A stretch of 60,405 nt of DNA, filler included, from Candidatus Fermentibacterota bacterium (GTDB lineage Bacteria > JAFGKV01): the NCBI GenBank assembly GCA_016928395.1. It is 5 parts of 5 records of this genome, joined end to end, with 100 filler letters (N's around TTAATTAATTAA, not from the genome) between each part and the next. Parts side by side here need not be neighbours in the genome. Positions count along the whole stretch, not along the records: positions 7,747 to 22,065 come from JAFGKV010000041.1; 4 more parts are not named here. One strand, 5' to 3'. This document shows, in pieces, positions 9,603-31,200 of this stretch. The notes under the pieces were generated by a model. It searched no databases, was not told where the DNA came from, and saw only the letters and a list, made by a program, of their open reading frames with translations. Made by a program: the position numbers and the translations under genes. Within the stretch, counting starts at the first letter, position 1. Every line of letters begins with the position of its first letter.

Positions 9603-9618
9603 TTCCCGCAATTCTGGC

Positions 9619-9759: not shown

Positions 9760-9798
9760 ATTAATCACCTCCTTCCCGTTGGTTAGCGCTAAGGAGCT

Positions 9799-9834: not shown

Positions 9835-9845
9835 ATCCTACCTTT

Positions 9846-10592: not shown

Positions 10593-10618
10593 CCCATCAC
10601 CCTGTGTTCTTCCTTGGC

Positions 10619-11245: not shown

Positions 11246-11375
11246 GATCCCAACGGGGCCGCGGGTGAGCCGCATAACACGTATACAGCACTGTAACCTG
11301 GTTGAGGTTTTCCTTTGTAGCATCTATCATTCACCTCCTCCTTGACAAACCGGAGCCGCGTCTTGTGCAGATCCG

Positions 11376-11462
11376 AATAACACTCACGTTCAGCCTCACA
11401 GCGCATCCATCGGGCTCGCCAAGAGAAGGAGTGGTCAGTCTTCAGTTGTCGGTAGTCAGGTG
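11376..11462 (-). mobile_element. Highly degenerate attC-like site
   Basis: Minus strand ACCTGAC...AACTGAAGACTGAC...GGCTGAACGTGAGT-GTTATTC resembles attC ends. Confidence 0.3.
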
Positions 11463-11510
11463 AGCGCGGGGGAAGCGGAGACGCGAACCCGTGGAAGACC
11501 CCCCGCGGTG

Positions 11511-11925
11511 CGACGGAACTGGCAGCGGAAAGAAGTGGTATGGGACGAGAAGCATGAGCGCGAGATTCGATCGGTTCCATCACAGCCCCATTGTGAAGGT
11601 CGCTCTTGTAGAGGGATAGGCCGAAGGAAGAGCCGCGGCTCGAACCTGTCAAGGCGCCCAGTCCTCGCTCTATTCGGGGAGTGCTGTCCGACAAGGGTGC
11701 CAGCGTGCTTCGCCAGGCCATGAATCGTTATGTGGATGGCCCTTTCGCTCAGCAACTTGACACTTTGTCTACGTCCCTAGACCCGACCAGACACGCCCGT
11801 CTCACGACGGAACCGGTAGTGGAGAGACGGCGAATGGTGTGAAAAGCGTGCTCGCGAGATCCGATTGGCTCCATGACGGCCCCTGGTGATGGTCTCTCTC
11901 GGAAGGGGATGCAGCCAAGGAAGCC
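11511..11925. repeat. Diverged direct repeat of about 125 bp (11511-11636 and 11805-11925)
   Basis: cgacggaac.gg.ag.gga.aga...gcgagat.cgat.gg.tccat.ac.gcccc..gtga.ggtc.ctct...gggat...aaggaag shared between copies. Confidence 0.75.
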
Positions 11926-11985
11926 GGTGCCTCGTGCACGGTCAGGCACGCGCGGCCGTGCGACGACGGCGTGGTGCGTGGGGAA

Positions 11986-12936: not shown

Positions 12937-13072
12937 GGTCATTCTCTTGGTCAGTATCCACGGAGTCCTATGCGGTCGGACAGGATTCTCCAACTAACCG
13001 GGCTTGGGCGCCCCGCGTCAAGAGCAGCCTGACGGCACGTTTCGTCTTTCCCGGGGAAACGGAGATCAGTGC

Positions 13073-13924
13073 ATGCAGCATGTGAGTGTAGTGATTCCAG
13101 TGTACAACCGATGCGATCTCCTGAGGAGAACCCTGCTCTCGCTGGCAAGCCAGAGCCTGGCGCCCTGCGAAATCATCGTCTCGGATGACGGGTCCGATGA
13201 AGATATCTGGGCTACCTTAATGGGGTGCGTTCCCCTGCTGAACTGCTCACTCGCCTATGTGCGACAGCCTCGGAAGGGCTTCAGGGCCGCACGGACTAGA
13301 AACAACGGGATTCACTATGCGAGCCATGACATCCTGGTGTTCGTCGACCAAGATATCGTGACGACCCGGGGCTACCTCGCAAGGCTGGCGCAGGGCACCG
13401 GACCAGGCACCTTCGCGGTGGGGTATCCGATACGGCTGACCCAGCGGCAGACGGCATGCGTCACCGATGCGATGATCAGACAAGGTCGATTCGGGGGAGT
13501 CGTGACGGCCCAGCAGCGTGGAAAGGTGACGCGCCAGTTCGTGAAGGACTTCTTCTATCACCACGCACGAAGGCATGGACTCATGCGCGCAGCGAGACCG
13601 AAACTCCGCAGCGGCGTGTTTGGGGCCTGGCGAGAGGACATTCTCCGCGTGGACGGTTTCGACGAGAACTTCGAAGGGTGGGGCAACGAGGACGACGACC
13701 TTGGTCGGAGGCTGTACGCCTCTGGAGTACGGGGCAGGAACGTGTGCTTCCGCGAATTTCCTCTTCATCTCTACCACGTGCCGCACCACAATGGTGGGTT
13801 CCGGGCGAATCAGGCCTTTGCTCAGGAGCGAATCCCCCGCATCCTCTCTGGAGAGGTACGCGCGTCCAGGGGCTTGAGCAGTACCACTCCCGAAGAGCGT
13901 CCCAACGCAACGTGGCTGCGCTAA
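13073..13924 (+). CDS. Glycosyltransferase family 2 (galactosyltransferase-like C-terminus)
   Basis: SVVIPVYNR, SDDGSDE, FVDQD, GFDENFEGWGNEDDDL. Confidence 0.9.
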   Translation: MQHVSVVIPVYNRCDLLRRTLLSLASQSLAPCEIIVSDDGSDEDIWATLMGCVPLLNCSLAYVRQPRKGFRAARTRNNGIHYASHDILVFVDQDIVTTRGYLARLAQGTGPGTFAVGYPIRLTQRQTACVTDAMIRQGRFGGVVTAQQRGKVTRQFVKDFFYHHARRHGLMRAARPKLRSGVFGAWREDILRVDGFDENFEGWGNEDDDLGRRLYASGVRGRNVCFREFPLHLYHVPHHNGGFRANQAFAQERIPRILSGEVRASRGLSSTTPEERPNATWLR

Positions 13925-14260
13925 GGCGTCTGCCTCGCGCAGGAATGGAAGTAACTGCGACGTGGGGCGTGTCTAGTCAATCAGCTCAAACCCTACGGGG
14001 CCGCATATGTCAGCGCAGGCCGGGCGTTCGGAAACGCCCCGAGTTGCCGCCGTGGGAGATACACCAGACGGTCACGGCGCCGAACGAGGCTCCCCCGCAC
14101 CGCAGAGACAATCCGCCCTGCACAGCGTATGACCGTACACTGCGCTGCCCTCACGCCGGCAAGAGCGCGCCGCGCCATAATCCTTCATTGACAGGGGCCA
14201 GCCTAAAGACGAGGTTCACGTGGTGTCGTCAGAGGGGAACTCTGCGAGGGAAAGCGGTTA

Positions 14261-15484
14261 GTGACTATGGGAGTTCCTCGACAAGGCGCGCCCATTGCAG
14301 CAGGGCGCATGCCTGGGCCACCTGGTGGCTACCATGAACAAGGAGCATACGTGACCGGCCTTAGCCTGCTCTTCATCAACTCCGCCAAGCGAGCCTCCGG
14401 GGGAGAATACTGGATGGCGCAGGTGGGGGGGGAGTTCGTACGAAGAGGCCACCGGGTAACCTTGGTCTGCCGCCCGTTCCGTCCGTGGGCGGAGCACGCG
14501 CGGGATTTGGGCGTGACAGTCTATGAGCATGGGCTCCGCGGCGACATCAATATGAACGCGGTGGTGCGCCTTGGATTGATCATGCTGCGGCAACGAGTAG
14601 AACTGGTCTGCACGGTATTCGAACGGGAAGCTCGTTTGGCGGGAATGGCGAAGCGCTTCTTCCCATCCGTTTCCTTGGTTCAGCGCAAAGTCGTTCCCCG
14701 GATCAAGAACCGCCTCCAGTACCGGGCAAGTTATCGCTACCTCGTCGACAAGATCCTCGCGTCCAGCCACAGCATAGAATCGCAGCTCACGCGGTACCCG
14801 TGGCTGTCGCCCGGCATGGTCGAGGTCGTTCCCAACGGCATCGACCTGACGCCGTTCACTTCCTTCAACCCGTCACGTCATGTGGCGAAACGGCTTGGGA
14901 TCCCGCGCGGGAGGGTAATCGTTGGGTCGGTTGCCGACCTTGTGCCCTCCAAGGGGCACGAGATGCTCCTCGATTCCCTGCCCAAGCTCCTTCTGCTGGC
15001 ACCGCAAGTTCATCTGCTGCTAGTCGGAGAGGGACTGATGCGGAGACGTCTTGAGCGGAAGAGCGAGGAGATGGGCCTTGCGGATCGCGTTACCTTCGCG
15101 GGATTCCGGCGGGACATTCCCGATGTTCTGCGCAACGTCGATGTATTTCTACTCCCCTCACGCTCGGAAGGGGCTTCACTGGCAGTACTGGAAGCCATGG
15201 CGGCGGCCCGCCCTGTGGTAGTCAGCGATGTGGGCGGAAACTCGGAACTGGTGATCCACGGCATCAATGGATTCCTCTTTCCCTTGGATGATCCGCTCAT
15301 GATGATCCAGCACGTGGCCCTTCTTGCGGCCAACCCTCGCCTGCGCAAGAGGATGGGGACTGAGGGCAGACGATGGGCCGAGCGCGAGTTCACCCTAGAC
15401 AAGATGATCGACAAGGTCGAGACCATCTTCCTCTCAACTGTCGAAGGCAAGCGAAAGGGAAGAGGTCTGCGGCATCCACAATGA
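14261..15484 (+). CDS. Glycosyltransferase family 4 (true start probably near 14351)
   Basis: GGE motif, VPNGID, KGHEML, PSRSEG.SLAVLEAMAA.RPVVVSDVGG. Confidence 0.9.
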   Translation: MTMGVPRQGAPIAAGRMPGPPGGYHEQGAYVTGLSLLFINSAKRASGGEYWMAQVGGEFVRRGHRVTLVCRPFRPWAEHARDLGVTVYEHGLRGDINMNAVVRLGLIMLRQRVELVCTVFEREARLAGMAKRFFPSVSLVQRKVVPRIKNRLQYRASYRYLVDKILASSHSIESQLTRYPWLSPGMVEVVPNGIDLTPFTSFNPSRHVAKRLGIPRGRVIVGSVADLVPSKGHEMLLDSLPKLLLLAPQVHLLLVGEGLMRRRLERKSEEMGLADRVTFAGFRRDIPDVLRNVDVFLLPSRSEGASLAVLEAMAAARPVVVSDVGGNSELVIHGINGFLFPLDDPLMMIQHVALLAANPRLRKRMGTEGRRWAEREFTLDKMIDKVETIFLSTVEGKRKGRGLRHPQ

Positions 15485-15802
15485 GCGGCCTTGTCCTCGC
15501 ATGCGTGTGCGACGATGGCCGTGAACCTACACGCGCAAGGACGGCTTGATCCCAGTCGCGTGGGGGGGTAAGTTGTGGTTGCATCAATGATGAGATGAAG
15601 GATAGCCCCAAGAAACGGGGGAAGCCTTGGCAACGGTCTTCTTCACTTCTCCCTCCGTGATCCGGGCGCCTCAACGGCGTGGGGATCAACTCGCTCAAAG
15701 CGCCTTGTCGCCGGGTCGCACGACAGGGGCGGTGTCGGTCAGGGCCCGCTCTGGCGTGCGCGCCATCGAGGGAGGGGGTCTATCAGGCCGGGTGAATTCT
15801 CG

Positions 15803-16480
15803 ATGCTCTCTCCTACGGAACATCCTTCGGTTTCGCGAGTCGCACGTCGCCATGCAAGGAGCGGGGGTATGACCACATCGTCTACCATGGGACCCACGTT
15901 GGGCGTAAACCTACACAAAGCAGTTGTTGCACGAGATCTCCGGCTCGTCGAGACGCTCCTGGCCAAGGGTGCGGACGTTCGCGCCCAGGATGCACTCGGA
16001 CGCACCCCGCTTCACTGGGCAGCCGGATGGAGTTCCCGCGAACTCGTGCATGTGCTCCTCAAAGCGGGCGGGGCCTTGGCAATCGCTACGGGCGACAAGG
16101 AGGGACAGACTCCGCTTCACCTGGCCGCCCTCCAGGGCCATCCCGACGTCGTCGAGCTTCTGATCGATGCGGGGGCGAACCGAGACATCAGAGACGGTAA
16201 CGACATGACGCCCCTCGACCTGGCGATCATCCTTGACCGGCGAGACGTTCTCGAGCGGCTGCTGTCCAGGGGGGTAGACGTGAATTCGAGAAGCAAGGAC
16301 GGATGGACGGCCCTGCACACGGCCGCGCTCTATGGGAAGCGGGTTGTCGCGGGGGTCCTCATCCTTAAGGGCGCGGATGTGAATGCCCGCGACGCCGACG
16401 GCGACGCGCCTCTGGATATCGCGCTGGCGGAGAATCATCGGGAAATCGTCGATCTACTGCAGAGCAGTGGCGCCCGGTAA
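15803..16480 (+). CDS. Ankyrin-repeat protein (start possibly 15869)
   Basis: Repeated GRTPLHWAA, GQTPLHLAA, MTPLDLA, GWTALHTAA and GDAPLDIA units. Confidence 0.92.
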   Translation: MLSPTEHPSVSRVARRHARSGGMTTSSTMGPTLGVNLHKAVVARDLRLVETLLAKGADVRAQDALGRTPLHWAAGWSSRELVHVLLKAGGALAIATGDKEGQTPLHLAALQGHPDVVELLIDAGANRDIRDGNDMTPLDLAIILDRRDVLERLLSRGVDVNSRSKDGWTALHTAALYGKRVVAGVLILKGADVNARDADGDAPLDIALAENHREIVDLLQSSGAR

Positions 16481-16625
16481 GTCGCATTCGCGCGAAAGGG
16501 GTCGCCCTTGACTCTTCTCGCCCCGGTCATGACCCCGTTGCATCGTGTGCTGGAAAAAGGTCTTCAAGCCCGACACATCCCGTTCATTTCGCGGCGAGTA
16601 TCCCTCACGCGCCGGATGTCGAGGA

Positions 16626-17816
16626 TCACAAGAGAGCGGATCCTCGGGAAAGACTCTCCTCTCCAAAACGATCCCAGATCCTGTCCATAGCGCTCACCAG
16701 CCTTTTTCTCACCACAGTATCCGGGAAGAGCTGATCCTCCAGCGTCACCTCAACATCACGCCGCAACCCAGCCGCAGTCACGCCCACCAACCGTACGCGT
16801 CTATCCCTTTGTATCATACCCTTGAGCAAGCGGGTGGCGATAAACCTGAGGGTTGATGGATCATGGAGATCCTCGCGCGCGGATGTTTGTCGCGTATGAG
16901 TCTCGAAACTCGACCATCGAAGGCGGGTTTGAACCCGTGAGGCCTGAAGCCTGTCTTGACGAAGGCGCCTGCTGACCCTGTCGCACAGCACGGTTACCAC
17001 CGCCCAGAATTCGGGGCCGATCCTCACATCGTGCCCGAAGGTATACTCGTGCCCCAGTGATCGTTCCTTGATCGGCCCTTGCTCACCGTCCAAAGCTCCC
17101 TTCAAGTCATCTAAAAGGCGCGCCATTCGATCTCCGCAGATACGACGAAGCCGCACAGGATCATTTCTGAGAAGATCACCGATGGTTACGATGCCATGCT
17201 GTTCAAGAAGGCACGATGTCTTCTTCCCGATACCCCAGAGTGATGAGGCCTTGAGCGGCAGGATGGCACCCGGCATCATGAGAGGATGAAGCACAGTGAA
17301 CCCGCCGGGTTTGTCCATGGATGACCCTAGTTTGGCCAACAGCCTATTGGGAGCGATGCCAATTGAGCAACTCAAGCCATGGGTGGAGGTAATGGCTTCA
17401 GACAATGTGCGACCATGTTCGACGACCGCAGCCCACGTCTGATGAAACCACATAGTGCATTCATCAACGCTCACAACCTCAAGGCGGGGGGCGAACCGCT
17501 GGCATGTAGCGAAAACCTCCAAGGACGCCTGGACATACTTCGACCAGTTCCCCGTCAAAAATACTCCATGCGGACACAGCCTACGGGCCTCCTTCATACT
17601 CATTGCCGAATGCACGCCGAACCTTCTTGCTTCATACGACGCCGCGGATACGATCCCACGCCCTTCCCGCTCTCCGCCGACAATCACCGGCCTTCCCTTG
17701 AGGCATGGCATGTCTCGCTGCTCGACTGAAGCAAAGAACGCATCCATGTCGAGATGAACGACAACCCTTGCTCGCTTCGCGGACAGGTCATCGTGCATCT
17801 CCACCCTCCCATCCAA
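16626..17816 (-). CDS. dinB: DNA polymerase IV (Y family)
   Basis: HLDMDAFFASVE, AASYEARRFGV, SVDE catalytic motif, KPGG, WGIG HhH, VRLVGV little finger. Confidence 0.92.
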   Translation of the reverse strand: MDGRVEMHDDLSAKRARVVVHLDMDAFFASVEQRDMPCLKGRPVIVGGEREGRGIVSAASYEARRFGVHSAMSMKEARRLCPHGVFLTGNWSKYVQASLEVFATCQRFAPRLEVVSVDECTMWFHQTWAAVVEHGRTLSEAITSTHGLSCSIGIAPNRLLAKLGSSMDKPGGFTVLHPLMMPGAILPLKASSLWGIGKKTSCLLEQHGIVTIGDLLRNDPVRLRRICGDRMARLLDDLKGALDGEQGPIKERSLGHEYTFGHDVRIGPEFWAVVTVLCDRVSRRLRQDRLQASRVQTRLRWSSFETHTRQTSAREDLHDPSTLRFIATRLLKGMIQRDRRVRLVGVTAAGLRRDVEVTLEDQLFPDTVVRKRLVSAMDRIWDRFGEESLSRGSALL

Positions 17817-17885
17817 TCATCCGGCAGGCCATGTTCCGCGTTTCGAGTTTCCCATTCGGCGGACAGACTGCCGATTCATCACGTC

Positions 17886-18140
17886 TCATCCTTCCAGAAA
17901 TACTTTCTCGACCCGCCACTGAAAGGTTCTGCTGTGAAACGACAGCTCATAGTAATCTATGCCATTGTCGGATACCGAATAGAAATGCTCCTGATCCGCT
18001 CCCGAACGGCTCATCCAATGCGATGCCAGATGCCGTACGGGCAATGTTCGCCCACGCCACTGAAAACGCAGGGGCTTCAAACATCCGTCTCGGAATAGCC
18101 CGATCACGTTGACCGGCTCCTCCAGGGTCTCGATCCGCAT
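17886..18140 (-). CDS. Small conserved-looking hypothetical protein upstream of dinB (DUF6504-like)
   Basis: EPVNVIG...KPLRFQWRGR...W...YYEL.F...W pattern; AGGAGGTG RBS before ATG 18140. Confidence 0.7.
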   Translation of the reverse strand: MRIETLEEPVNVIGLFRDGCLKPLRFQWRGRTLPVRHLASHWMSRSGADQEHFYSVSDNGIDYYELSFHSRTFQWRVEKVFLEG

Positions 18141-18159
18141 GGTCACCTCCTTTCACCTG

Positions 18160-18188
18160 GTATTAATGTACAAATGTACAGTAGTCAA
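18160..18188 (-). promoter_or_regulatory. Promoter containing palindromic operator TGTAC-AAAT-GTACA (candidate LexA/SOS box, 18167-18180)
   Basis: Minus strand TTGACT-ACTGTACATTTGTACA-TTAATAC directly upstream of the small ORF-dinB pair. Confidence 0.6.
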
Positions 18189-18339
18189 GGAGAGAAGTGA
18201 CCAATGACCTCGGGCCTCTCCGGCTCGCGTGACACGATCCAGGGAGAACGGGGTCGACACCTTCATCTCACCTTGAGGGAAGCCCTTCCAGATCCGGCAG
18301 GTCACGATCATGAGGGTGCGGTCCGCCCGCTCCCTCCCT

Positions 18340-18392
18340 CCTTCACCCCTTCACCCCTTTACCTCCTCACCCCTTCACCTCTTCACCCCCCC
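18340..18392. repeat. Octamer tandem repeat (TTCACCCC)n
   Basis: ttcacccc ttcacccc tttacctc ctcacccc ttcacctc ttcacccc; a similar run at 57592-57615. Confidence 0.75.
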
Positions 18393-18660
18393 TGTGTCAT
18401 CGCGGCAGCCCAGGTGCTTGTTCTGAACGGGTCCCAGGGCTAAGTTGAACCGATCGGTTCACCCCTCCCGAACCTCGGTGCCGATTCCACGGACCACTCT
18501 GATTTCTTGCCAATGAGGGGCCCTTCGAAAGTCAGGCATGCACCCGCCGCGGAAGGCCGGGAGATTCCTGCTGGAACACCCGGCTGTGAAACGATCCTGC
18601 GGTGCCAAGTGCCCGCCGAAGGCTCAGCGGCGTGCATCCCTGCATATAGAGGAGATTGTG

Positions 18661-19863
18661 ATGACCTCAAGAGATGCCATGGCCATCGAAGAAGCGTATG
18701 GCGCCCACAACTATCACCCCATTCCCGTGGTGCTGACCAGAGGCGAGGGTGTATGGGTGTGGGATGTGGAGGACATGCGGTATCTGGATATGCTCAGCGC
18801 ATATTCCGCTCATAATCTTGGCCACGCCCATCCAGGAGTCCTGGCCGTTGCCCATCGTCAATTGGAACGGCTCACGCTCACCTCCCGGGCTTTCCACAAT
18901 GACCTTCTGGGGATTTTCTGCCGCCGGCTGGCGGAGTTCTGCGGGTTGGAGATGGTTCTACCCATGAACACCGGCGCTGAAGCAGTGGAAACCGCCATCA
19001 AGACCGCACGAAAATGGGGATATCAGGTCAAAGGCGTCGAGCAGGAGAAGGCGGAGATCATCGTCTGTTGTGAGAATTTCCACGGCCGTACCACGACCAT
19101 CATCAGCTTCTCCACGGACCCGGTAGCCCGCAATGACTACGGCCCCTACACGCCGGGCTTCACCATCATCCCCTTCGGCAACGCGGCAGCCCTCGAAGAG
19201 GCGATCACGCCCAATACCGTCGCCTTCCTTGTGGAACCGATTCAGGGTGAGGCCGGAGTCAAGGTGCCGCCCGACGGGTATCTGAGTGCGGCCCGTCAGA
19301 TTTGCACCCGCCACAATGTCCTGCTGGTTCTCGACGAGGTGCAGACCGGATTCTGCAGAACAGGTAAACGCTTCTGTCACCACTACGAGGATGCGACGCC
19401 CGACATTTTGGTCTTGGGCAAGGCTCTCGGTGGCGGTGTGATGCCGGTCTCAGCCGTGGTATCACGGCGCGACATCTTGAGCGTCTTCAAGCCCGGGGAG
19501 CACGGTTCAACCTTTGGCGGAAACCCCCTGGCATGCGCCATTGCCATGGCCGCCCTCGATGCCCTCGAGGATCCAGCGCTGCTGGCCAATGCCGCGCGCC
19601 AGGGCGAGCGATTCCGCTCCACCCTTCGGAGCATCGACAATCCCGTCGTACGCGAAGTGCGGGGCAGGGGGCTTCTCAACGCCATCGAGCTCGACGCCCA
19701 CAAGGCATCCGGCAGGAAGGTGAGCGAGGCCCTGCAGGCCCGGGGAGTGTTGGCCAAGGAGACCCATCAGAACATCATTCGTTTCGCGCCACCCTTGATC
19801 ATCGATGACGACGAGATGAGCTGGGCATTGGAGCGGATCATCGCAGTGATTCGATCGCTATAG
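18661..19863 (+). CDS. rocD: Ornithine--oxo-acid transaminase
   Basis: [66 protein letters not shown]. Confidence 0.93.
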
Positions 19864-19874
19864 AGGCACGGTTC

Positions 19875-20954
19875 GTGACCTTTGACGACCACGGTGTCGG
19901 TCCGCATGCGCTCATGGTGCAGCGCTCATCCCGTGGCTTCGTGCCGCTCACGGCCATCCTGGAACTTACTCACCGATGCAATGAGCGTTGTGTCCATTGC
20001 TACGTGATACAACCGCGGGGAAAGCCTCCCGAACTTACCACGGGCCAATGGAAGGATATCCTCGGGCAGCTCGCCGCGTCGGGAACCATCGAGGTCACCT
20101 TCAGCGGCGGTGAAGCCTTCCTCCGGTCCGACTTGTTCGAGATCCTGGAGGAGGCTCGCCGGCTGAACTTCTCCATTAAGCTCTCGACCAATGCCACCCT
20201 GGTGGGCTCTGAGGAAGCGGCACGGCTGAGCGAGCTGAAGCCGTGGGAAATAGGCGTGAGCCTCTATGCGGCCGATCCTGCCGTCCATGAAGCCATCACT
20301 AGACTGCCCGGCAGTTTCCACCGCACTGTGGCGGGTATCTCCGCCATGGTCGGCCAGGGAATGCGAGTGCGGATACGCAGCGTGCTCATGCAGGAGAATC
20401 TTGGCCAGGAAGAGGCACTTGAGGCCTTGGCGCTCCGGCTCGGCGCATCGTTCTCTCAAGATCCCTTGCTGACACCGCGCAGCGATGGGTCACTGGATAA
20501 TCTGCTCCACCGGCTCACGCCTCAGCAGTTGCGCCGATCCCTGGAGGCCGATGCACAGCGCCTCCTGGGCGAGGATGACCCCGCCCGGTGGGATGAGGTC
20601 CGCCAGGACAAGCTGCAAAGCTTCATGTGCAAGGCGGGCATCAACTTCGTGTCCATCGGCCCCGAGGGGCAGGTGCTGCCATGCGTGCAGTTTCAGCAGA
20701 TTGCGGGCAATGTATCGGAAAGACCCTTCGCGGAGATCTGGAAAACCTCGCCGGTGTTCCGTCGCCTTCGCGCAACTGTGAACGCCGACCTCGATACGTG
20801 CCGTGACTGCGAGCTTTCACCGTTGTGCTTCCGCTGCCCGGGAGAGGCGCTTCTCTCCAACGGCGACGCCTTCGGGCCATCGACCTATGCGTGCATGCGC
20901 GCAGGCTTCCTGAACGAGCTCAGGGCGTCCCGAAGAGGCTTTCCGGAGCGATAG
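19875..20954 (+). CDS. Radical SAM/SPASM-domain protein (peptide maturase-like)
   Basis: CNERCVHC (CX3CX2C) and SGGE; SPASM motifs CKAG...IGPEGQVLPC...GNV...IW...CRDC.....C..C...C. Confidence 0.93.
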   Translation: MTFDDHGVGPHALMVQRSSRGFVPLTAILELTHRCNERCVHCYVIQPRGKPPELTTGQWKDILGQLAASGTIEVTFSGGEAFLRSDLFEILEEARRLNFSIKLSTNATLVGSEEAARLSELKPWEIGVSLYAADPAVHEAITRLPGSFHRTVAGISAMVGQGMRVRIRSVLMQENLGQEEALEALALRLGASFSQDPLLTPRSDGSLDNLLHRLTPQQLRRSLEADAQRLLGEDDPARWDEVRQDKLQSFMCKAGINFVSIGPEGQVLPCVQFQQIAGNVSERPFAEIWKTSPVFRRLRATVNADLDTCRDCELSPLCFRCPGEALLSNGDAFGPSTYACMRAGFLNELRASRRGFPER

Positions 20955-20976
20955 ATGAGGGTGCGCCTTTTTTTTC

Positions 20977-21005
20977 TTGACACCCATGCGATACGTTCGT
21001 ACTCT
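20977..21005 (+). promoter_or_regulatory. Sigma70-type promoter for the small peptide gene
   Basis: TTGACA (20977-20982), 17-bp spacer, TACTCT (21000-21005), preceded by a T-rich tract. Confidence 0.6.
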
Positions 21006-21070
21006 TGTGCCGGTTCTGTATGTAGGTCTATTCCCTACTGCGATGTTCTCTACTCGTGGAGGTGTACCAA

Positions 21071-21313
21071 ATGAAGAAGGCGTATCGGAAGCCCTCGATC
21101 TTCTCCGAGGCGACTTTTGAGACTTCGGCGCTGGCATGCGGCAAGTCCACTGCCACCCCGTATGGCTACATCTGGACGGTGACCGGCCATCACACCGGCT
21201 CCAGCCACAGCCCCGGCACCGGCTCGGGCTGGGTTTCCAGTTCGGCAAGTTACTCTGACGGCGCGTACTGCGGCTATAGCGACGTCCAGCCGAACAATAT
21301 GTTCGCCTCCTAA
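21071..21313 (+). CDS. Putative RiPP precursor peptide, 80 aa
   Basis: GGAGGT RBS; leader MKKAYRKPSI (YxxP-hydrophobic) ...ETSALA; Ser/Gly/Thr/aromatic-rich core with 2 Cys; adjacent to rSAM/SPASM gene. Confidence 0.8.
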   Translation: MKKAYRKPSIFSEATFETSALACGKSTATPYGYIWTVTGHHTGSSHSPGTGSGWVSSSASYSDGAYCGYSDVQPNNMFAS

Positions 21314-21330
21314 GACTAGAGCAGAGTTTT

Positions 21331-21365
21331 AAGCCGGGGCTGCGGCTTTCGCAGCCCCGGTTTTT
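21331..21365 (+). terminator. Rho-independent terminator
   Basis: CCGGGGCTGCG-GCTTT-CGCAGCCCCGG followed by TTTTT. Confidence 0.85.
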
Positions 21366-21635
21366 GTATGCCCACGGCGTGGTCGTGCGTGAGTGTCGGG
21401 GTTATGATGACAGAAAGCCCTTGGGAGTCATGGTCAGAACTCACTGCAGCGGAGGGCGGAAATCGAGCGCCCTGGAGGGATTCGCTTCGACCCATCGAGT
21501 GCGCCCGCCCTGAGCCCGCACTGGTGTGTGGTGTGCGAGGGCCTCCAGGTCCGACACGTTCGCTGATGCGTGCGGGGCCACCCGCAGAGAAGGACTCGGA
21601 ATCCAAAGACGCCGAGCCCAGCGCCCCCAGCCGGA

Positions 21636-22064
21636 CTAGGCTGGTGCGCCTTCCGGGCGCACGCTGAAGTACTCGGCGTCGGGATGATGCAGAATCAGCC
21701 CGGAGGTGGAGCACTCCGGTAGCAGTTGCCATGCTTCGGTATGGGAGATCCCGATCCGTTCGGGCGCCAGCAGGGCGAAGAACTGCTCATGGGCCTCTAT
21801 GGCCGGGAACGCGGGCATGCCCGGCGCATAGGCCTTGCCGCCGGCACCCAATCCCCACTCAGTCACGATGGATGCCCGCACCATGTCAGCCAACGCCTCG
21901 GTCAGAGCCATGATAAGCCCATGAAGAAGGAAATAGCGAGAATAGAGGCCGTTGTTCCGTGCCTCCTCTGCCGTGGCAAGGCTTTTCGCACCCATGGTCG
22001 CCATGAACGCAGCGACCACATCGCCTGACGGCGCCACATAATCCTGAATGGAGCGACCCCCACC
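21636..22064 (-). CDS. metH: B12-dependent methionine synthase, C-terminal activation domain (5' partial)
   Basis: HGL..ALTEALA, YAPGMPAFP, LLAPERIGI, QLLPECSTSGLILHHPDAEYF. Confidence 0.8.
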   Translation of the reverse strand, partial: GGGRSIQDYVAPSGDVVAAFMATMGAKSLATAEEARNNGLYSRYFLLHGLIMALTEALADMVRASIVTEWGLGAGGKAYAPGMPAFPAIEAHEQFFALLAPERIGISHTEAWQLLPECSTSGLILHHPDAEYFSVRPEGAPA

Positions 22065-22065
22065 C

Positions 22066-22165
22066 NNNNNNNNNNNNNNNNNNNNNNNNNNNNNNNNNNN
22101 NNNNNNNNNTTAATTAATTAANNNNNNNNNNNNNNNNNNNNNNNNNNNNNNNNNNNNNNNNNNNN
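22066..22165. other. Artificial contig linker
   Basis: N-TTAATTAATTAA-N. Confidence 0.98.
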
Positions 22166-22419: not shown

Positions 22420-23346
22420 TCACCCCCGCGGGTGGAATGTGCGGTGAACCTCGCGGAGGAAGTCGCGATCGAGGTGGGTATAGATCTGGGTCGTCGTGAT
22501 ACTCGAATGGCCAAGAAGCTCCTGCACTACCCTCAGATCCGCGCCGCCCTCCAGGAGGTGGGTCGCGAAGCTGTGGCGCAGCGTATGGGGGCTGACATCC
22601 GGCCCCAGGCCCGCCCGAAGTGAATAGGTTTTCACGATATGCCAGAGCGTAATGCGAGAGATCCGGGTGCCCCGATTGGTCAAGAACAGCCAGTCGGCGT
22701 GCCGTCGTGCCAGCAGTGGTCGCGCCCTGTCGAGATAGTCTCCAAGCCACCGTCGAGCCACGGCGCCGAAGGGCGCGATGCGAACCTTGCTTCCCTTGCC
22801 CAAGACCCTCGCTACTAGATCGGTCAGTGATGCGTCGGCAACCCTCAGGGTGATGATCTCCGAGGCTCTCAATCCCGCCGAATAGAGCAGCTCCAGCATG
22901 GCTCGGTCACGGAGCCCCAGGGGTGTCGCGGCATCGGGCTGCGCGAGAAGTGCCTCGACACTCGAGACGGATAGCACCTTCGGAAGCGTGCGGAGCATTC
23001 GGGGAAGCGAGACTGTCGCCGCGGGATCTGTCGAAACGATTCCCTCCGCTACGGCGAATCGGAACAGACTGCGTATGGCCGCGAACGCGCGGCGCTGACT
23101 GGCGCGGGCGAGCCCGATCTGTGCCAACTCACCCAGGTATGCCGACAGGTGTTTTTGCCGTACAGACGCGGGCTCAGCCGTGCCTTGGGCAAAGAGCCAC
23201 CGCAGGAGCCTGAACACTTCATGCTGATACTGGGAAACGGTGAGGGGAGAGAGGTTGCGCTCCACGGCCAAGAAGGTGAGCCAGTGCGCCACGAGATCGT
23301 GGTATGGGGGCGGCAGTTGCCTATCCACCGTCCTCGTCATCCCCAT
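22420..23346 (-). CDS. xerD: Site-specific tyrosine recombinase XerD
   Basis: RDRAMLELLYSAGLRASE, GKGSKVR, SPHTLRHSFATHLLEGGADLRVVQELLGHSSITTTQIYTH, HRTFHPRG end. Confidence 0.92.
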   Translation of the reverse strand: MGMTRTVDRQLPPPYHDLVAHWLTFLAVERNLSPLTVSQYQHEVFRLLRWLFAQGTAEPASVRQKHLSAYLGELAQIGLARASQRRAFAAIRSLFRFAVAEGIVSTDPAATVSLPRMLRTLPKVLSVSSVEALLAQPDAATPLGLRDRAMLELLYSAGLRASEIITLRVADASLTDLVARVLGKGSKVRIAPFGAVARRWLGDYLDRARPLLARRHADWLFLTNRGTRISRITLWHIVKTYSLRAGLGPDVSPHTLRHSFATHLLEGGADLRVVQELLGHSSITTTQIYTHLDRDFLREVHRTFHPRG

Positions 23347-24312: not shown

Positions 24313-25223
24313 TGGCGGCGCGACACCGCGTTGTGGTAAATCCCTTCAGTGGTAATGGGCACGGGCGTCGCATCGGCACGTTGCTGCCCGGCATTTTTGC
24401 GCGATTGGGCCTCACCGCCGAGTTTCACGAGAGCAGCACTGCCGAGCACTTCAAAGCCCTTGTCGGCGGCAGGCCGGCCGAGCCCGGAGAGCGTGTGGTG
24501 ATCTGCGGGGGCGATGGCTCACTGAACATGGCGCTTTCGTGCGTCACGCCCGGCACCAGGCCGGCATTGGCTCTGGTGCCCTGCGGTAGAGGAAATGACG
24601 TGGCCAGAAGCCTCGCCATCCCCGCCCATCCCGATGGCGCCGCCGCAGTGCTGGCCGAGGGTCGTGAACGCGCGATGGATGTCGGCTATGTGAACGACCG
24701 GCCATTCGCATCCATCGCTGCCATGGGCTTCGACGCCCTGGTCTCCTTGGCCGCCTCCAGGATGAGGCGAGTGAAGGGCCGTATGGTGTATGTCATAGCG
24801 GCGATCAAAGAGCTGGCTCGGTTCCATCCACCCTTATTCACCATAGAGAGCGACACGTTCACCTTCCAGGGTCGCGCGATGATGGTATCGGTGGCCAACT
24901 GCCCCTACTACGGCGGCGGCATGATGCTGTCGCCGGATTCCAAGATGGACGATGGTCTTGTGGAAATCTGCGTGGTGCTGCCGATGTCCAAGCTCGGCCT
25001 GTTGCGGATGCTACCGAAGTTGTTCACGGGCGGCCACGTTGACTCGCCCTACTTTCTGATCGCGTCCGCGCAACGAGCCACCATCGGCTGCGATCCCGCC
25101 GTGCCTATCTGTGCCGACGGGGAGTATCTGACCATGAGCCCCGCCACGATCCGCATCGAGCCTGCCGCCGCGACCGTTATGGTTCCGCCAATGGGGATCT
25201 CTGCAGGAGCACCGACCCCGTGA
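24312..25223 (+). CDS. Diacylglycerol kinase family lipid kinase (YegS/DagK-like)
   Basis: NPFSG, GGDGS, PCGRGND, GFDA, NCPYYGGG, DDG and ADGE motifs. Confidence 0.9.
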   Translation: MAARHRVVVNPFSGNGHGRRIGTLLPGIFARLGLTAEFHESSTAEHFKALVGGRPAEPGERVVICGGDGSLNMALSCVTPGTRPALALVPCGRGNDVARSLAIPAHPDGAAAVLAEGRERAMDVGYVNDRPFASIAAMGFDALVSLAASRMRRVKGRMVYVIAAIKELARFHPPLFTIESDTFTFQGRAMMVSVANCPYYGGGMMLSPDSKMDDGLVEICVVLPMSKLGLLRMLPKLFTGGHVDSPYFLIASAQRATIGCDPAVPICADGEYLTMSPATIRIEPAAATVMVPPMGISAGAPTP

Positions 25224-28200
25224 TCAGCCCGATGATGCTGTGCATCGCCTTGGCAGGTGAATCACTGCCTCCGGTGATCAGCGTGATCCCGAGCCCGCCG
25301 GATCGGGTGATCCTTGAGGCACATTGGGAAACCGTATCGATAGCCCGCGATTCCTCTGGCCGGCTTCGAGTGATCGCGCCTAGTTTGGCCTATGCCATGC
25401 CGGTGGGCTCTCCTGATCTCCCTCATGGGGCAGTGGCCGTTGCCCTGCCTCCCCGAGGCGACTATGAGGTGAGCGCGTTCCCATCGGGAGTGACATCCCA
25501 CACCGGGCTCATCGCCGCGGTGGATGATACCCTCAGGACGGGGACCATGCGCGTGCCGCAGACCTGGCACGCGGTGACCGCCGAGGGCTGGCTGCGGCAT
25601 CAGCGCATGATGGAGCTGACTCTGTTTCCCGCGATCCCAAGCCCGATGGGGCTCAGCACCGCACGGCGGGTTCGGGTGGAGATTCGGTTCACCGACATCG
25701 GAATCGGAGGGGGAACTGTCAAGGAAGAGCCCTCCTTCGAGGCCGTGTACCGGGTGGCGGTGAATCACCAGCAGGCAACCGCCTGGCGGGCGACGCCCCC
25801 GGTGACGCTGCGGCGAGATCCCGTTTTGCCACCGGAACACGCGGTGAAAGTCTACGTTGACCGGCGGGGAATCACCGCCCTCTCCGGCGCCGATATGGAA
25901 ATCGCCGGCATCGATATCTCCACGGTCGACCCATCAACATTACGCCTCACCTGCCGGGGCGAAGATGTTCCGTACGCGTTTACTGGACTCGGCACACACA
26001 TCCTCTCCCCCACTGACTCCCTGCTCTTTTTCGGGCATCCCAACTACCGTGCCGACGAAGGCTGCCGCCTGGTTGACTGGTGGGATCACTTCAGTGCCGC
26101 CAATGTCTACTGGCTCTCATGGGGGGAGGCTCCAGGGATACGTTTCACCCAACGCCCGGCCGCGCCGTCGGGCGCGCATCCCGTGGTGGAATGGCACGCG
26201 GCTGTTGCGCACGCCGAACAGGACCTGCTGGCCTTCCTCAGCAATGAGGGCGACGCGCCATGGCCTACCGAGTGGTATTGGCAGAGATGGAGCGCCGGCA
26301 CGCAAGGGGTCACAAAGGACTTCACCGTGGTGGTGGATTCTCCGCGACCGACCCAGAGCGCTCTCCTGCTGCGCGCGTCACTGCACGGGTACTCCAATCT
26401 GAGCGGCGTACAGTGGCAGTATCATACGACATTCGCGCTGAACGGCAATCCCCTGGGTGATGTGTACTGGGGCCAGTGGAACGGGCGGGTGCCGTTCTGT
26501 TATGACAGCCAGCAGCAGGGAGACCTGATCCAGGCGGAGTGGATACAGCAGGGCACCAATACGTTCGCCGTGCGGCTGCTGCCGGACATTGACCCGGAGA
26601 AGGGGCCGCTCAGCACCGCCTATTTTGATTCGTGGAGCCTCCGGTATGACCGCATACTGAAAGCCGTTCAGGATACTCTGGAATTCGAGGCCCCGCCGGG
26701 AACCGGCGCGGGAATGAGAACCTTTCGAGTCCAGGGCGTCTCCACGGCGGACGTGGTCTTGTTGGACATGGTGCGCCAAGAGCGGCTGATTGGCGCCGAT
26801 CATATCGGCACGACCCTGACCTTTGAGACCAGCGTTGCTGACTCGACGCGGTTTGCCCTGGCCTCCCGGGCCCGGCTTGTCCAGCCGCTCAAGATCGTCA
26901 AGGAGCGGCCAGCGGATCCGCCGCTGTCTTCGGGAGACGCACAGGCTGCCTACCTGATCATCTCCTATGACCGGGAAGAGGCGGGCGATGCGGATCCCTA
27001 TCACAACCTGTTTGATGCGGCAATCAACCTGGCTTTGGCCAGAGATGCCGTCGTGCCCACCAGGGTTTTTGACGTGCAGGACATTTACGACGAGTTCAAC
27101 TGGGGAATCATCGACCCTGAGGCCATCAGGGATTTCCTGAAGCATGCGTTTTCCACGTGGAGCCTCGTCCCGCCCGAGTATGTGCTCTTCTTCGGAGACG
27201 CTTCGTGGGACTACTTGGGGCGATCAGGCCCCACGGCCAAGAAGAGCTTCGTGCCATGCTGGGGCTATCCCATCTCCGAGAACCACTTTGTCGAACTCTC
27301 CGATGGCGACTTCTTTCCCGATCTCCATATCGGTCGCCTGCCGGTGGAGAACTCGTTCCAGGCGGACAATGCGGTGGCCAAGGTGCTGGCCTACCCGGCG
27401 CCGTACCAGGAAGACGAAACGTGGCGGAAACGCGCCCTCATGGTAGTGGGAGGATTCACTGACTCCGAGCAGACCATTTTCGAAAGCCACGCCGAAAGTA
27501 TCCTGACCGGCTATGTACTTCCTGCGCCTTTCCTCGGGGACCCCAGCCGGGTCTACCGCAGCCTGACCGGCTATCAGCCGGGCTACTACAACCAGCGGAT
27601 CGTGGACGCCATCAATGACGGGTGTGTGGCGCTGAACTACATCGGCCACGGCGCCGCACTCACCTGGGGTATCATGTTCGACGTCACGGATGTCGGCTCA
27701 CTCACCAATGATCTCTCGCTTCCCGTTACCATGGGCCTGACCTGCAACTCCAATGCCTTTGGCGAACCTGACACCAGTTGCCTCGGCGAGGTGTTCCTGC
27801 GCCTTGGAGATCCGGCCCACGGCGCCATCGCCTCGTGGGGGGCCACCGCCCGAGCCAATGAGTATTCGGCCTGGCGCGGATCCCTGGCGTTCTTCCAGGC
27901 CCTCTGCATTGATCTTGAACGTCGCGTCGGGCCTTTGACTACCGCAGGCAAGATCGCAGGCGGCTCATCGGTGTGGACCATGTTCTCGCTCCTGGGAGAA
28001 CCCCTGGTGGAGTTGCCGGTACCCACGGGCCCTGACCTTGTGATCAATGAGGACAGTCTCTCAGTGACGCCCTCCGTGGTGGGAGAGAACCATGATGTCG
28101 CCATCGATGTCGTGGTGGAGAACCACGGCAGGGCCTCTCCGGAACAGGTAATCGTGCGGTTCGCCGCCGGCCCCGAGGGAAGTTCCTCAGAGATCGCGGC

Positions 28201-31200
28201 GGTGTCCGACACGTGCGGCATGCGGCGCCGGAGCCCGTACACGGTCACATGGAACACCGGCGCGGGCCTGGGACCGCGCATTGTCTCTGCATCCGCTGAT
28301 CATCTTGACGTGATGGCCGAGTTGCGGGAAGACAACAATGTGGCGACGCTGCCGTTTGAGGCGCTCCTGGCGCCGCCCTCGGTGGCGGCCCCCTTCGATT
28401 GCCAGGTGAGCACTACGGCCTCGGTGTGGCTCACCGTGAACAACCTCCCGGGGCAATCGACGGGGCGCACCTATGAGTTCCAGATCGCTCGTACGGACAG
28501 TTTCACTCCTTCATCACCAGGCTTCGCCAGTTCCGGCGCGGTGAGCCAGCAGCAGGGCTCTACGGGCTGGTCTCCGCTGGGCCTGATGCAGGGGACGACG
28601 TACTTCTGGCGATGCAAGGCCATGGAGGGTTCCTTTGACGGCGCATGGTCGCCCACGGCAAGTGTCACCATTGATACCACCGCATCCGGCACGGTCTGGG
28701 CACAACGGCATGGCGCCCAGTTTGCGGCGGATTCCCTGGCCCAGCTCGTCGTGGACCGCGAGCTGCACACCGTGGTGCTGCGCGCCCAGGTGAATCCGAC
28801 CGACTATGCCCACGTGGATCAAGGCGCCACCGTACCCTTTGTCTCCAGCTACATGACGCAGCCGTATACAGACCCCCTGAATCTCATTGGTGAGGATATC
28901 GGCAGCGGCGCCGGCCAGTACGGCCAATTCCTGTTCGCCAACAACGACTACGCGCAGGAAGCCCTCATCGATCTCGGTCAAGAACGAACCATTGGAATCG
29001 TGGGATCCGAGCACTGGATCGGTCTGGACGACAGGCCGGTCTGGTCTTTCTACCGGATCAGTTCTTCCTTGAACAATGTCGATTTTGAAGAGTGGGGAGC
29101 GCTGGGCCCCTACACACTGCCCAGTCTGGGCAATGTGCCCACGCCCATGTTCTTCTCGGTGGAAACACCCCGCCCGGTGAAGTTCCTCCGGTTCCAGTTC
29201 GGACAGGGCCTCCCCCACCCCTTCCCCGGCGGTGCATTGTGGGGATCCCGGATCTATGAGGTGTTTGCCTATGCAGTGGATTTCTTGCCCTCCGGCACGC
29301 TCACCTCCTCCGCAGCAGGCCCCGCTGCCTCTTGGCAGCAGGCGACCTGGGATGCCGACATTCCACCGGGGGCATCCTTTACCGTCACCGTGCTTTCCTC
29401 ATCCACCGCGACGGGCCAGTTCCTTCCGGTTCAAGGCCTGGGTGGTTTGAGTGCCTCCCCCGTTGATCTGAACGCAATCACGGATCCCTACGTGAAACTT
29501 GTCGGGACCGCCTCCACCACCGATCCGCGAGTGACACCAGCGTTGCACCAGTGGCGCCTCCGGTTCCAAGGAGGCGTGGATATGGCGTTCAGGGGCGGGC
29601 TCTCGGTGACGCCGCCTCTTCCGCCCGCAGGGAGTGTGGCCCAGATCGGCGGTGTGATGGTCAACCAGGGTATCTCCACGGCCGACACGGTGCGCTTCCT
29701 GCTGCGCGATACGACGACGTCGGCCGCTGTTGACATCATGGATACCCTGCTAATCGGGCTTCAACCGGGAGCAGTCTGGCAGTTTGCCGTGCCCTGGTTG
29801 TCAACGATCGGGCGGCACACCGTCACGGCATCCGCCGAGGTCCGTGGAGGGGCTCCTGAAGTGGCGCCGGGAGACAATGAGGCCGCGGTGGAAGTCGTAG
29901 TGCTTCCAGACCCGGCGTGCCTGGCCCTCAGGGCTGTTACGCCCCAACCCCAGCAGTATGGCGCCTTGCTTCTGGAGGGGATCATCGGCAACCAGGGATC
30001 CGTCTTGACCGATTCGGTGCCCTGGGTGCTTGAGAGCAAGGGCCCGGACGCGGCGGCTTTCGTCGCTGTGGATTCGGGGGCCACGGGCTTCGTGACACCG
30101 GGCGAGAGCATCGCGGTGGCCATCCAGTGGCCCCCGCCGCGCACTCCCGGGATGCATGATCTCCTCTTTGCCGTGGCATACTCCGGCGAACAGGTCAGCA
30201 TCGCCAATGATACGGTAGAGATCAGCATACGAATCGCGGGGGCCGCTGATCTTGTCATCGATTCCCTCGCATTCTCCAATAGCCAGCCTCCTGCCGGTGA
30301 CCCGGTGGGGGTTCGTCTGCGTGTCCTCAATGCCGGCGAAGCAGGCGTCGATAGTGTTTTCCTCGTGCTCTTCCACACTCCCCCCGGGGGAGATGAAGCA
30401 ACGTTGGCGGTATGGGAGCTCAGTGTGGAGGGGGGGCAGGCCCGCGCCATGGAGGCGACCTTTGTCACGTCCGGTCTGCCGGGGCTGCACCGCATTCGGG
30501 CGGTAGCGGACCCGGATGACGTGATCCCGGAGGCCGACGAAGGCAACAACAGCAGAGCCGATTCGATCACCGTACTCAGCGGCGCCGACCTGCTGTGTAC
30601 GGGGCTGTCCCTCGCACCCCTGCCGGTGCTCACTCGCGACACCGTAGTAGCCTTCGCCACCGTGCGGAATGCCGGAGAGATCGCCGTCGGATCCTTCGAG
30701 CTCGCGTGGGAAGCAGCGGAGCTTCGCCTTCTTGCTGGTGACGGCACAGTAGGTGGCCTGGATGGAACATCAGAGGAGCAGGTATCCGCCACCTTTCTTG
30801 CGCCGTCTGTGCCTGCGGAGGGAGTCATACGCCTGATGATCGACGCGCCGGACAGCGTCGAGGAGACCAACGAAGGGAACAATGTGGCGGAGAGCGCGGT
30901 GGGCATTGTGGCCGAGCCTGACCTGGCAGTTCGCAGCGACGAGGTCCGATTTGATCCTTCGGCACCCACCGAGGATGATACCGTGGCGGTACGCTTTGTG
31001 GTCCGCAATAGCGGGGGAGCGCCCAGCGAGGAGTTTCTCGTTTCAGTCGCCCACCGCCCCGGCGGATCCGGCGCGTGGACCGAGTTCTTCGCCAGCACCT
31101 TCAGCTCCATTGCCCCCGGTGGGTTCGCGGAGGGCCACGCAGCATGGATTGCAGACGACTACCGCCTCACCCACTGGTTTTGCGTTACCTGCAATCCTGA

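Follow-up and report, generated by a model that had tools for sequence, protein, structure and literature searches.

Peptide maturation by a radical S-adenosylmethionine (radical SAM) enzyme with a SPASM domain, paired with a PqqD-family protein, is of a known kind. In the pyrroloquinoline quinone (PQQ) and mycofactocin systems (PqqE/PqqD/PqqA and MftC/MftB/MftA), a stand-alone PqqD-family protein accompanies a three-cluster radical SAM/SPASM enzyme that has no fused recognition element (RRE) for peptides that are synthesized ribosomally and then modified post-translationally (RiPPs). PapB, AlbA and SkfB carry such an element fused at the N-terminus. The SynChlorMet (SCM) cassette, a name under which our literature search found no paper, presumably joins ScmC, ScmD (PqqD-like) and ScmE/ScmF (radical SAM/SPASM), parts that we take from the names of the models only. 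In lasso peptide systems, the HprK-like kinases PadeK, ThcoK and PsmK attach phosphate to the conserved Ser at the C-terminus of the precursors, according to a review (PMC9266682). Here we describe a radical SAM/SPASM gene and the 80-aa peptide gene that follows it in a 60,405-nucleotide stretch of DNA from a Candidatus Fermentibacterota bacterium (assembly GCA_016928395.1); we refer to this whole stretch as the window.

We consider it likely that the window holds a two-gene module, an RRE-less radical SAM/SPASM maturase together with a precursor of 80 aa that has a predicted promoter and terminator of its own, that this module belongs to a widespread RiPP family for which we found no description, and that the canonical five-gene cassette of this family is dispersed in the Fermentibacteria-type lineage concerned. 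The genes, the selection acting on them, the family, the cassette and its dispersal are established observations. The precursor family, the cassette and the sequence constants described below have neither a Pfam or NCBIfam model nor a paper that we could find.

The radical SAM/SPASM enzyme and its peptide neighbour

Both genes are on contig C326 (window 7747-22065; Table 1). All the elements listed in an initial annotation of this DNA are present in the sequence: a radical SAM/SPASM gene, TTGACA-N17-TACTCT, GGAGGT, the 80-aa peptide and a strong hairpin. The peptide string that it gave, including CGYSD, YSD twice, WTV and WVS, matches exactly. The enzyme is recognized by the Pfam models Radical_SAM (PF04055; 5.1e-22, 79 bits against a cut-off of 29.5) and SPASM (PF13186; 1.2e-10, 42 bits against 21.5). 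Its CX3CX2C motif is formed by C35, C39 and C42 and, because only ~34 residues precede the first cluster Cys, no RRE is fused to it, as the annotation had also held. The SPASM cysteines are C252, C270, C309, C312, C318, C321 and C340, and none of the three plus seven cluster cysteines varies among 15 aligned members of the clade.

No NCBIfam model claims the enzyme, and every score lies far under its cut-off: NirJ2 (137 against 500 bits), AhbD (132 against 500), NirJ (112 against 500), MftC (132 against 265), PqqE (118 against 381), ScmE (110 against 400) and ScmF (90 against 400). The PapB model NF047865 (cut-off 340) was absent from the 25 best NCBIfam matches of the window enzyme and reached 65.7 bits on one clade member. 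MftC gave the best full-length NCBIfam alignment, its positions 10-309 (of 339) pairing with residues 23-318 of the enzyme, and the nearest solved structures by sequence were PqqE (1.4e-17) and then SkfB (7.9e-15), both peptide maturases. We built a quick maximum-likelihood tree of 32 rows, omitting the partial sequence at locus L061 and using as outgroup six paralogs from the same genome plus a weak hit from locus L030 of the related genome G001. Peptide-linked enzymes were split from these seven radical SAM/SPASM genes with a Shimodaira-Hasegawa-like approximate likelihood ratio support (SH-aLRT) of 97. The window enzyme and two orthologs (100) grouped with the paralog on contig C3 of the window genome and with long-core acidobacterial enzymes (88).

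The 80-aa open reading frame (ORF) is a real, conserved gene. Among 40 other genomes searched, two were relatives of the same family, G001 and G002, with orthologous enzymes 77% and 63% identical to that of the window. Both retain the order ornithine aminotransferase (OAT), radical SAM enzyme, peptide; the peptides are 83-93% identical, and G001 has two tandem copies. Pairwise ratios of nonsynonymous to synonymous substitution (dN/dS) for the window ORF against three orthologous copies were 0.05-0.14 at a dS of ~1, alike in the leader and the remainder. Cys23, Cys67 and Ser80 are invariant in the homologs aligned, and the leader of the window peptide reads Y5-x-K-P8-x-I10 ... F16-E-T-S-A-L21. 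The DNA 3' of the peptide differs in each of the three genomes, and therefore the module ends at the terminator. Judged by sequence comparison, the locus is more than a chance arrangement: the ORF, the gene order and the promoter hexamers recur in relatives.

The radical SAM and peptide genes are separated by 116 nt that carry the promoter-like hexamers and GGAGGT. Both hexamers are identical in G001, where the spacer between them differs, and G002 has TTGATA...TACTTA; GGAGGTGTAC is found upstream of the G001 peptide ortholog too. For the hairpin at 21331-21363 and its T run the folding energy is -31.8 kcal/mol (z = -4.8); none of 200 shuffled sequences was as stable.

The peptide gene is probably transcribed. 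We drew RNA evidence from the assembled contigs of four RNA-library runs in four studies (three of sediment, one of ice), and each run yielded one contig of 228-302 nt at 95-99% identity, covering 21025-21325, 21047-21316, 21065-21323 or 21094-21321. The libraries contain the peptide gene as a short stand-alone piece: the contigs span it and little more, have no loose ends and share with G001 the W54 -> F difference, and the longest starts at 21025, downstream of the promoter-like site. The radical SAM gene had no contig cover in these four runs, which is not evidence on its expression.

The FETSAL-leader family and its five-gene cassette

Built from nine peptides of this lineage, a profile searched against 5.8 billion proteins matched 48 homologous clusters, none named beyond 'hypothetical protein'. 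A scan of a genome collection with the peptide found 45 loci, hosted by Fermentibacteria- and Eisenbacteria-labelled metagenome-assembled genomes, many Acidobacteriota, Armatimonadota, Firestonebacteria and others. Common to all 45 is the N-terminus Y-x-K-P-x(7)-F-E-T-S-A-L-x-C-G/A-K. A leader profile (31 positions, 61 leaders), run against 1.84 billion proteins (representatives at 50% identity), matched 736 clusters at E <= 0.001 and 231 at <= 1e-10. This makes for a large family, of no fewer than 736 clusters at 50% identity, which is common among Acidobacteriota of soil and peat.

Family constants were counted on the 150 listed representatives of these 736 clusters. All are 51-120 aa long. 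The C-terminal residue is Ser in 142, exactly two Cys occur from the conserved Cys onward in 139, and the last Cys lies exactly 7 residues from the C-terminus in 127. Before the conserved Cys, all 150 have Ala at position -3 and 141 have S, A, T or G at -1. The core has a median of 18 residues (range 13 to 74) and is widely variable in sequence. A partly overlapping set of 142 distinct peptides, taken from the loci and the proteins of the 48 clusters, gave a similar picture, with 135 ending in Ser.

The window peptide has the defining features of the family, namely a Y-x-K/R-P-x(7)-F-E-T-x-A-L-x-C leader, a second Cys and a C-terminal Ser. It belongs to a long-core branch: its 58-residue core is about three times the usual length and runs 13 residues past the last Cys, in keeping with the long, unusual core that the initial annotation had remarked on. 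We place the leader/core boundary at Ala22|Cys23 because of the Ala-x-small|Cys site, which fits the -3/-1 rule of signal peptidase I, and because the cassettes include an S24/S26-like gene. The annotation had put the break at the same junction, which proves to be the conserved site.

Six family peptides compared with Pfam and NCBIfam (E up to 10) matched no model beyond one chance-level row, that of ribosomal protein S27e in NCBIfam (E 0.011; 15 bits, cut-off 70). A Protein Atlas search with the peptide returned unnamed clusters only, with scores below 0.9, and a literature search that stopped short of subscription journals and supplements found no description of the FETSAL-leader family or its strings. 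We considered and rejected two other identities for the peptide. A lipoprotein or Sec signal ('ALAC') does not suit a charged leader that lacks a hydrophobic core and carries Ala, not Leu, at -3. A lasso peptide, suggested by the YxxP leader and the kinase, does not suit a core without Asp or Glu at positions 7-9 and loci without a cyclase gene.

In Acidobacteriota the cassette runs precursor, S24/S26-like peptidase, ScmC-like protein, PqqD, radical SAM/SPASM enzyme (for example L063). A long-core acidobacterial variant has a large protein with an ScmC-like C-terminus, PqqD, the radical SAM enzyme, the peptidase and three tandem peptides of 86-103 aa; in the distant genome G016 the set is ScmC-like, PqqD, radical SAM enzyme, a 49-aa peptide and peptidase. 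The S24/S26-like protein scores 48 bits on TIGR02228 (archaeal-type signal peptidase I) against a cut-off of 51.85 and falls just under the cut-off of Pfam S24/S26. On the ScmD model the cassette PqqD proteins reach 25-43 bits (cut-off 100). The ScmC-like proteins have TIGR04249 (ScmC) as their best NCBIfam match, at 36-43 bits against 125; HprK-related models give 21-31 bits against 200.

The predicted fold of the ScmC-like protein is confident (predicted local distance difference test, pLDDT, 90.9; predicted template modelling score, pTM, 0.88). Among Protein Data Bank folds it resembles most closely the ATP-dependent PEP carboxykinases (PEPCK; E 2e-7, template modelling (TM) score ~0.5 on the query) and then HprK/P (E 3e-5). 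A search of the same databank by sequence gave no matches. Invariant in a 15-sequence alignment are G134, G139 and K140 of the Walker A motif, H119 and D155, and Protein Atlas groups the protein with clusters that bear Pfam ScmC.

Peptide and enzyme keep company. Anchoring on the peptide, we found a radical SAM enzyme of the clade (33-78% identical) in the flank of 22 of the 45 loci, with PqqD as well in 19 of these 22. The other 23, which include the second-type peptides of this lineage, extra copies and short contigs, have no flanking clade enzyme, so precursors that lie apart from enzymes are common in the family. Anchoring on the enzyme, a metagenome scan with the radical SAM alignment gave at least 565 relatives, from which we took the best 80, with 37-46% identity to the window enzyme. 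In 77 of these 80 the radical SAM gene is directly preceded by PqqD. Of the 40 that had sufficient DNA upstream, 33 carry a same-leader peptide immediately before the peptidase gene, by a relaxed leader pattern limited to the region upstream of that gene. The strict FETSAL pattern matched 5 of the 80, the fourth motif position varying (M, T, R, Q, L). Peptide family and enzyme clade are found together in Acidobacteriota, Armatimonadota, Firestonebacteria and the distant genome G016. The cassette genes include no transporter, and no dehydrogenase or other cofactor-pathway gene was matched by Pfam or NCBIfam among those scanned.

Two further genes were seen beside cassettes. At L033, a gene like a B12-binding radical SAM methyltransferase (7391-9550, minus strand) lies just past three tandem precursors; it scores 127 bits, under the cut-off, on a RiPP C-methyltransferase model, and from its sequence may be an extra tailoring enzyme. 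A large protein of ~750-950 aa without a Pfam or NCBIfam match often precedes the cassette (for example L063 3672-5936), and the one in L033 has an ScmC-like C-terminus.

Dispersed partners, proposed pathway and alternatives

Neither the window nor the two orthologous loci hold a contiguous five-gene cassette. Each has the radical SAM enzyme and the peptide only, with no PqqD adjoining the enzyme, and in the window genome further parts lie on contigs C3, C53 and C340. Four PqqD genes occur in this genome, and only the C3 copy falls in the cassette clade (99), beside long-core acidobacterial PqqDs (87); the PqqD tree mirrors that of the radical SAM enzymes. The neighbouring radical SAM enzyme on C3 (rSAM2) is 42-43% identical to that of the window. 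G002 keeps the order PqqD, rSAM2, tRNA-binding-domain gene, and G001 keeps PqqD; no precursor was seen beside or upstream of the C3 PqqD. A second type of precursor lies on C53, where no radical SAM gene occurs within ~9 kb; its neighbours are an ScmC-like gene and a 226-aa ORF that belongs to no known family, and after these come genes for an ECF sigma factor, an anti-sigma factor and an HtrA-like protease. The leaders of the two types are almost the same up to and including residue 26. At 14 other accessory loci we found no family peptide. The initial annotation had proposed a minimal or split cluster with partners in trans and suggested looking through the genome for paralogous leaders and a stand-alone PqqD. 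That search yields the type-2 peptide on C53 and the PqqD on C3, and the proposal is supported by the position of the sole cassette-clade PqqD on another contig when 77 of the best 80 relatives have it adjacent.

The genome contains other genes of these kinds. A further radical SAM/SPASM protein of 460 aa, with an N-terminal extension, is encoded ~4 kb from the C3 operon (L018 6557-7939). Sets of other clades occur on C329 (PqqD, radical SAM and ScmC-like genes), C308 (radical SAM and ScmC-like), C88 (PqqD and radical SAM) and C125 (PqqD), and the genome therefore holds several separate RiPP-like radical SAM systems.

We propose the following pathway. The C3 PqqD, the sole cassette-type copy, would bind the shared leader and present type-1 peptides to the window enzyme (rSAM1) and type-2 peptides to rSAM2. 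The window enzyme would then cross-link the core by means of three [4Fe-4S] clusters, most likely as thioethers through the two invariant Cys. The ScmC-like kinase-fold protein could act on the invariant C-terminal Ser, by analogy with the HprK-like lasso kinases, and the S24/S26-like peptidase would cut A20-L-A22|C23, releasing a 58-residue modified core that starts at Cys. A two-chain structure prediction, for which the C3 PqqD and residues 1-45 of the window peptide were each supplied as an alignment, lent weak support to this binding: the score was 0.53 against 0.02 for the best control, runs agreed on at least 98% of contacts and partner pLDDT was at least 52. Of 157 solved complexes 116 attained the mark used, as did 2 of 215 mismatched pairs; at scores of 0.60 or below, only 18 of the 157 and both mismatches attained it.

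The fixed Cys-to-Ser spacing suggests, as speculation from the sequences, a C-terminal ring. As a tentative extension, which we put forward with more doubt than belief, the family could represent a new class of RiPP, its C-terminal Cys-Ser ring closed jointly by a PEPCK/HprK-fold kinase and a radical SAM/SPASM enzyme and its leader then removed at Ala-x-Ala|Cys by a homolog of the endoplasmic-reticulum-type signal peptidase. By one route the ring would form by phosphorylation of Ser and then thioether formation. The Fermentibacteria variant would be a modified mini-protein of 58 residues, rich in His, Gly and Ser, made from at least four loci.

Other readings of the locus deserve weighing. The window enzyme might recognize its peptide directly, with no RRE at all, leaving the C3 PqqD to serve only the neighbouring paralog and the orphan type-2 peptides. 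The arrangement is a stable one, the module having no adjacent PqqD in all three genomes and PqqD with the paralogous enzyme forming a conserved operon of its own, and the predicted PqqD-leader complex is only weakly supported. Yet the near-identity of the type-1 and type-2 leaders argues for one common recognition partner, and both the position of PqqD in 77 of the best 80 enzyme-anchored loci and the ~34 residues ahead of the cluster motif tell in the same direction, so we think direct recognition unlikely. Another reading, to which the initial annotation was drawn by CGYSD and the aromatic motifs, takes the peptide for a ranthipeptide, with a PapB-like Cys-to-Asp CX3D thioether, or for a triceptide-type cyclophane substrate. 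CGYSD is there, an acidic residue stands four after Cys67 in most close orthologs (CGYSD, CGYGD, CGYAD, CGFGE), and a SPASM radical SAM enzyme places ranthionines even on a protein-sized substrate, according to one report (PMC13692751). The CX3D motif itself, however, is not conserved: G002 has CGFGE, and the acidic position is absent from peptide P0027 (CGSGN), the paralogous type-2 peptides (C-Q/D/E-x-A) and typical cores (such as C-H-S-N-R-K-T-S). As for cyclophanes, W35 is kept in the window-type subfamily, as that idea would have it, whereas W54 is F, Y or S in orthologs and no aromatic position is family-wide. The window peptide has a single CX3D motif where PapB substrates carry repeated ones, and a clade member scores far under the PapB cut-off. 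Such a substrate is, in our judgement, distinctly improbable. A ranthionine or sactionine link is possible, and the motif argument alone is insufficient to decide on it.

Two further readings concern the enzyme. As maker of a PQQ- or mycofactocin-like cofactor, acting at the C-terminal residue as MftC does, it would fit the full-length alignment to MftC and the proximity of the PqqE structure; the conserved C-terminal residue (Ser in 142 of 150 listed representatives), the strong purifying selection across the whole peptide and a cassette without a transporter can be read the same way. But its MftC and PqqE scores are far under their cut-offs, cores of 13-74 variable residues in several divergent copies per genome are unlike a cofactor precursor, and no dehydrogenase or cofactor-pathway gene was matched in the cassette genes scanned. 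A cofactor is an unlikely product of the FETSAL family, and for this locus we rate the reading very low. That the two genes are neighbours by accident, a NirJ/AhbD-type tetrapyrrole enzyme beside an unrelated small protein, is scarcely credible: NirJ2 and AhbD do head the NCBIfam rows by E-value, but far under the cut-off of 500, and the peptide family and enzyme clade co-occur across phyla with PqqD as the usual neighbour of the clade. The initial annotation had staked its case on this very point, and homologs do have neighbouring peptides and score far below NirJ and Ahb cut-offs.

Several observations count against a dispersed two-gene RiPP module, the reading we prefer. What we say of peptide modification, leader binding and product is inference only. 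The rows of the radical SAM tree were picked for nearness to family peptides, and NirJ, Ahb and MftC sequences are not among them. None of the ScmC-like, PqqD and peptidase-like proteins reaches the curated cut-off of a named family, and the terms 'kinase' and 'leader peptidase' come from fold or motif. Around the ScmC-like orthologs of G001 and G002, no family peptide occurs in the ~1.5 kb on each side (less at one locus, which meets a contig end), and the ScmC-like gene beside the type-2 peptide may be there by chance. The genome is 94% complete in 343 contigs, and missing partners may lie in gaps. The PqqD-leader score may reflect the predictor's memory of solved RRE-leader complexes, not binding by this copy. 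The RNA-library contigs come from close relatives and are not raw reads; transcript start and strand are beyond their reach, and DNA carry-over is possible. Finally, a consensus scan of 18300-22060 called no promoters and no terminators. The promoter-like site went uncalled because its poor -10, TACTCT, agrees with TATAAT at 3 of 6 positions only, and we retained the manual reading of both elements on account of the conserved hexamers and the stable fold of the hairpin.

Surroundings of the locus and relation to described systems

The window joins contigs C325, C326, C327, C328 and C332 (four whole and part of the fifth) end to end. Upstream of the radical SAM gene, the OAT gene, a conserved neighbour, ends 11 nt before its start. 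Downstream of the peptide gene, a convergent metH-type fragment (the C-terminal part, on the opposite strand) reaches the contig end, and the statement that nothing adjacent lies downstream rests on the ~750 bp between the peptide gene and the end of C326.

Table 1. Features of the locus and of its dispersed counterparts (window positions unless a contig is named)
Feature	Position	Strand	Basis or remark
N spacers around TTAATTAATTAA linker	7647-7746, 22066-22165, 52010-52109, 57777-57876		genes across a spacer are not physical neighbours
Ornithine aminotransferase (OAT)	18538..19863	+	NCBIfam TIGR01885, 549 bits against cut-off 378
Radical SAM/SPASM peptide maturase (predicted), 359 aa, GTG start, no fused RRE	19875..20954	+	Pfam Radical_SAM and SPASM
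Promoter-like site: -35 TTGACA 20977-20982, 17-nt spacer, -10 TACTCT 21000-21005	20977..21005	+	sequence reading
Putative ribosome-binding site GGAGGT, 7 nt ahead of ATG	21058..21063	+	sequence reading
Precursor peptide gene, 80 aa, ATG 21071, stop 21311-21313	21071..21313	+	conservation, leader profile, RNA-library contigs
Predicted leader, residues 1-22	21071-21136	+	Ala-x-small|Cys site
Predicted core, residues 23-80 (Cys23 to Ser80)	21137-21310	+	Ala-x-small|Cys site
Intrinsic-terminator-like hairpin, 14-bp stem, 5-nt loop, T run	21331..21365	+	folding
rSAM1 and type-1 peptide	C326 (part of the window)		
Operon of PqqD (106 aa), rSAM2 and tRNA-binding-domain gene	C3:17488-18938 (L018 11486-12942)	minus	
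Type-2 peptide, 83 aa, core ending ...AICQLAYLAS	C53:16782-17033 (L002 1459-1710)	minus	
Second ScmC-like gene	C340		
Homolog (227 aa) of the cassette peptidase, with 37% identity across 128 residues	C3:33.1-33.8 kb		sole tblastn match in genome

Elsewhere in the window, the start of C327 (22228-22514) has overlapping ORFs on both strands with short repeated units (QLAVGS..., LPTAD/LPTAN...), a pattern that points to a tandem DNA repeat beside a tyrosine-recombinase-like gene (22420-23346, minus strand). The same contig has a 2214-aa ORF at window 25220-31864, and C53 of this genome encodes a 1599-aa protein of the gingipain-type Peptidase_C25 family.

The FETSAL cassette brings an S24/S26-like peptidase and an ScmC kinase-fold protein together, and gives the ScmC family a testable role. 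The hallmarks of the FETSAL family are a Cys that opens the core, another that stands 7 residues from its end, and Ser as the last residue. The window represents a stable, dispersed version of the system, and so offers a test case for one PqqD serving two enzymes and for the core length that an enzyme tolerates. A peatland study counts many 'ranthipeptide' and 'RRE-containing' clusters (PMC13642348), and automated tools, we infer, probably give FETSAL clusters no more than these labels.

Each of the described systems is matched in part. With the SynChlorMet cassette the family shares an ScmC-type protein, a PqqD-family protein and a radical SAM/SPASM enzyme, but the ScmC, ScmD and ScmE/F scores here are all far below equivalog cut-offs, and the FETSAL family adds the S24/S26-like peptidase and a distinct precursor with two Cys and a C-terminal Ser, its parts being dispersed in the window lineage. 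With PapB and the freyrasin ranthipeptides, AlbA and SkfB, it has in common a radical SAM/SPASM enzyme and Cys-containing precursors; the window enzyme, in contrast, has no fused RRE, FETSAL-clade enzymes fall far under the cut-offs of the PapB, AlbA and SkfB models, and CX3D is not conserved. The lasso systems of PadeK, ThcoK and PsmK likewise encode a P-loop protein of PEPCK/HprK fold with a C-terminal-Ser precursor, whereas FETSAL cassettes have no lasso cyclase or B2 protease genes, their cores have no Asp or Glu at positions 7-9, and the similarity to HprK is marginal. The PQQ and mycofactocin systems resemble the window pair and its C3 partner in having a stand-alone PqqD-family protein and an RRE-less three-cluster enzyme; the window enzyme nevertheless scores below both cut-offs, and its precursor is unrelated to theirs, with a variable core of up to 58 or more residues.

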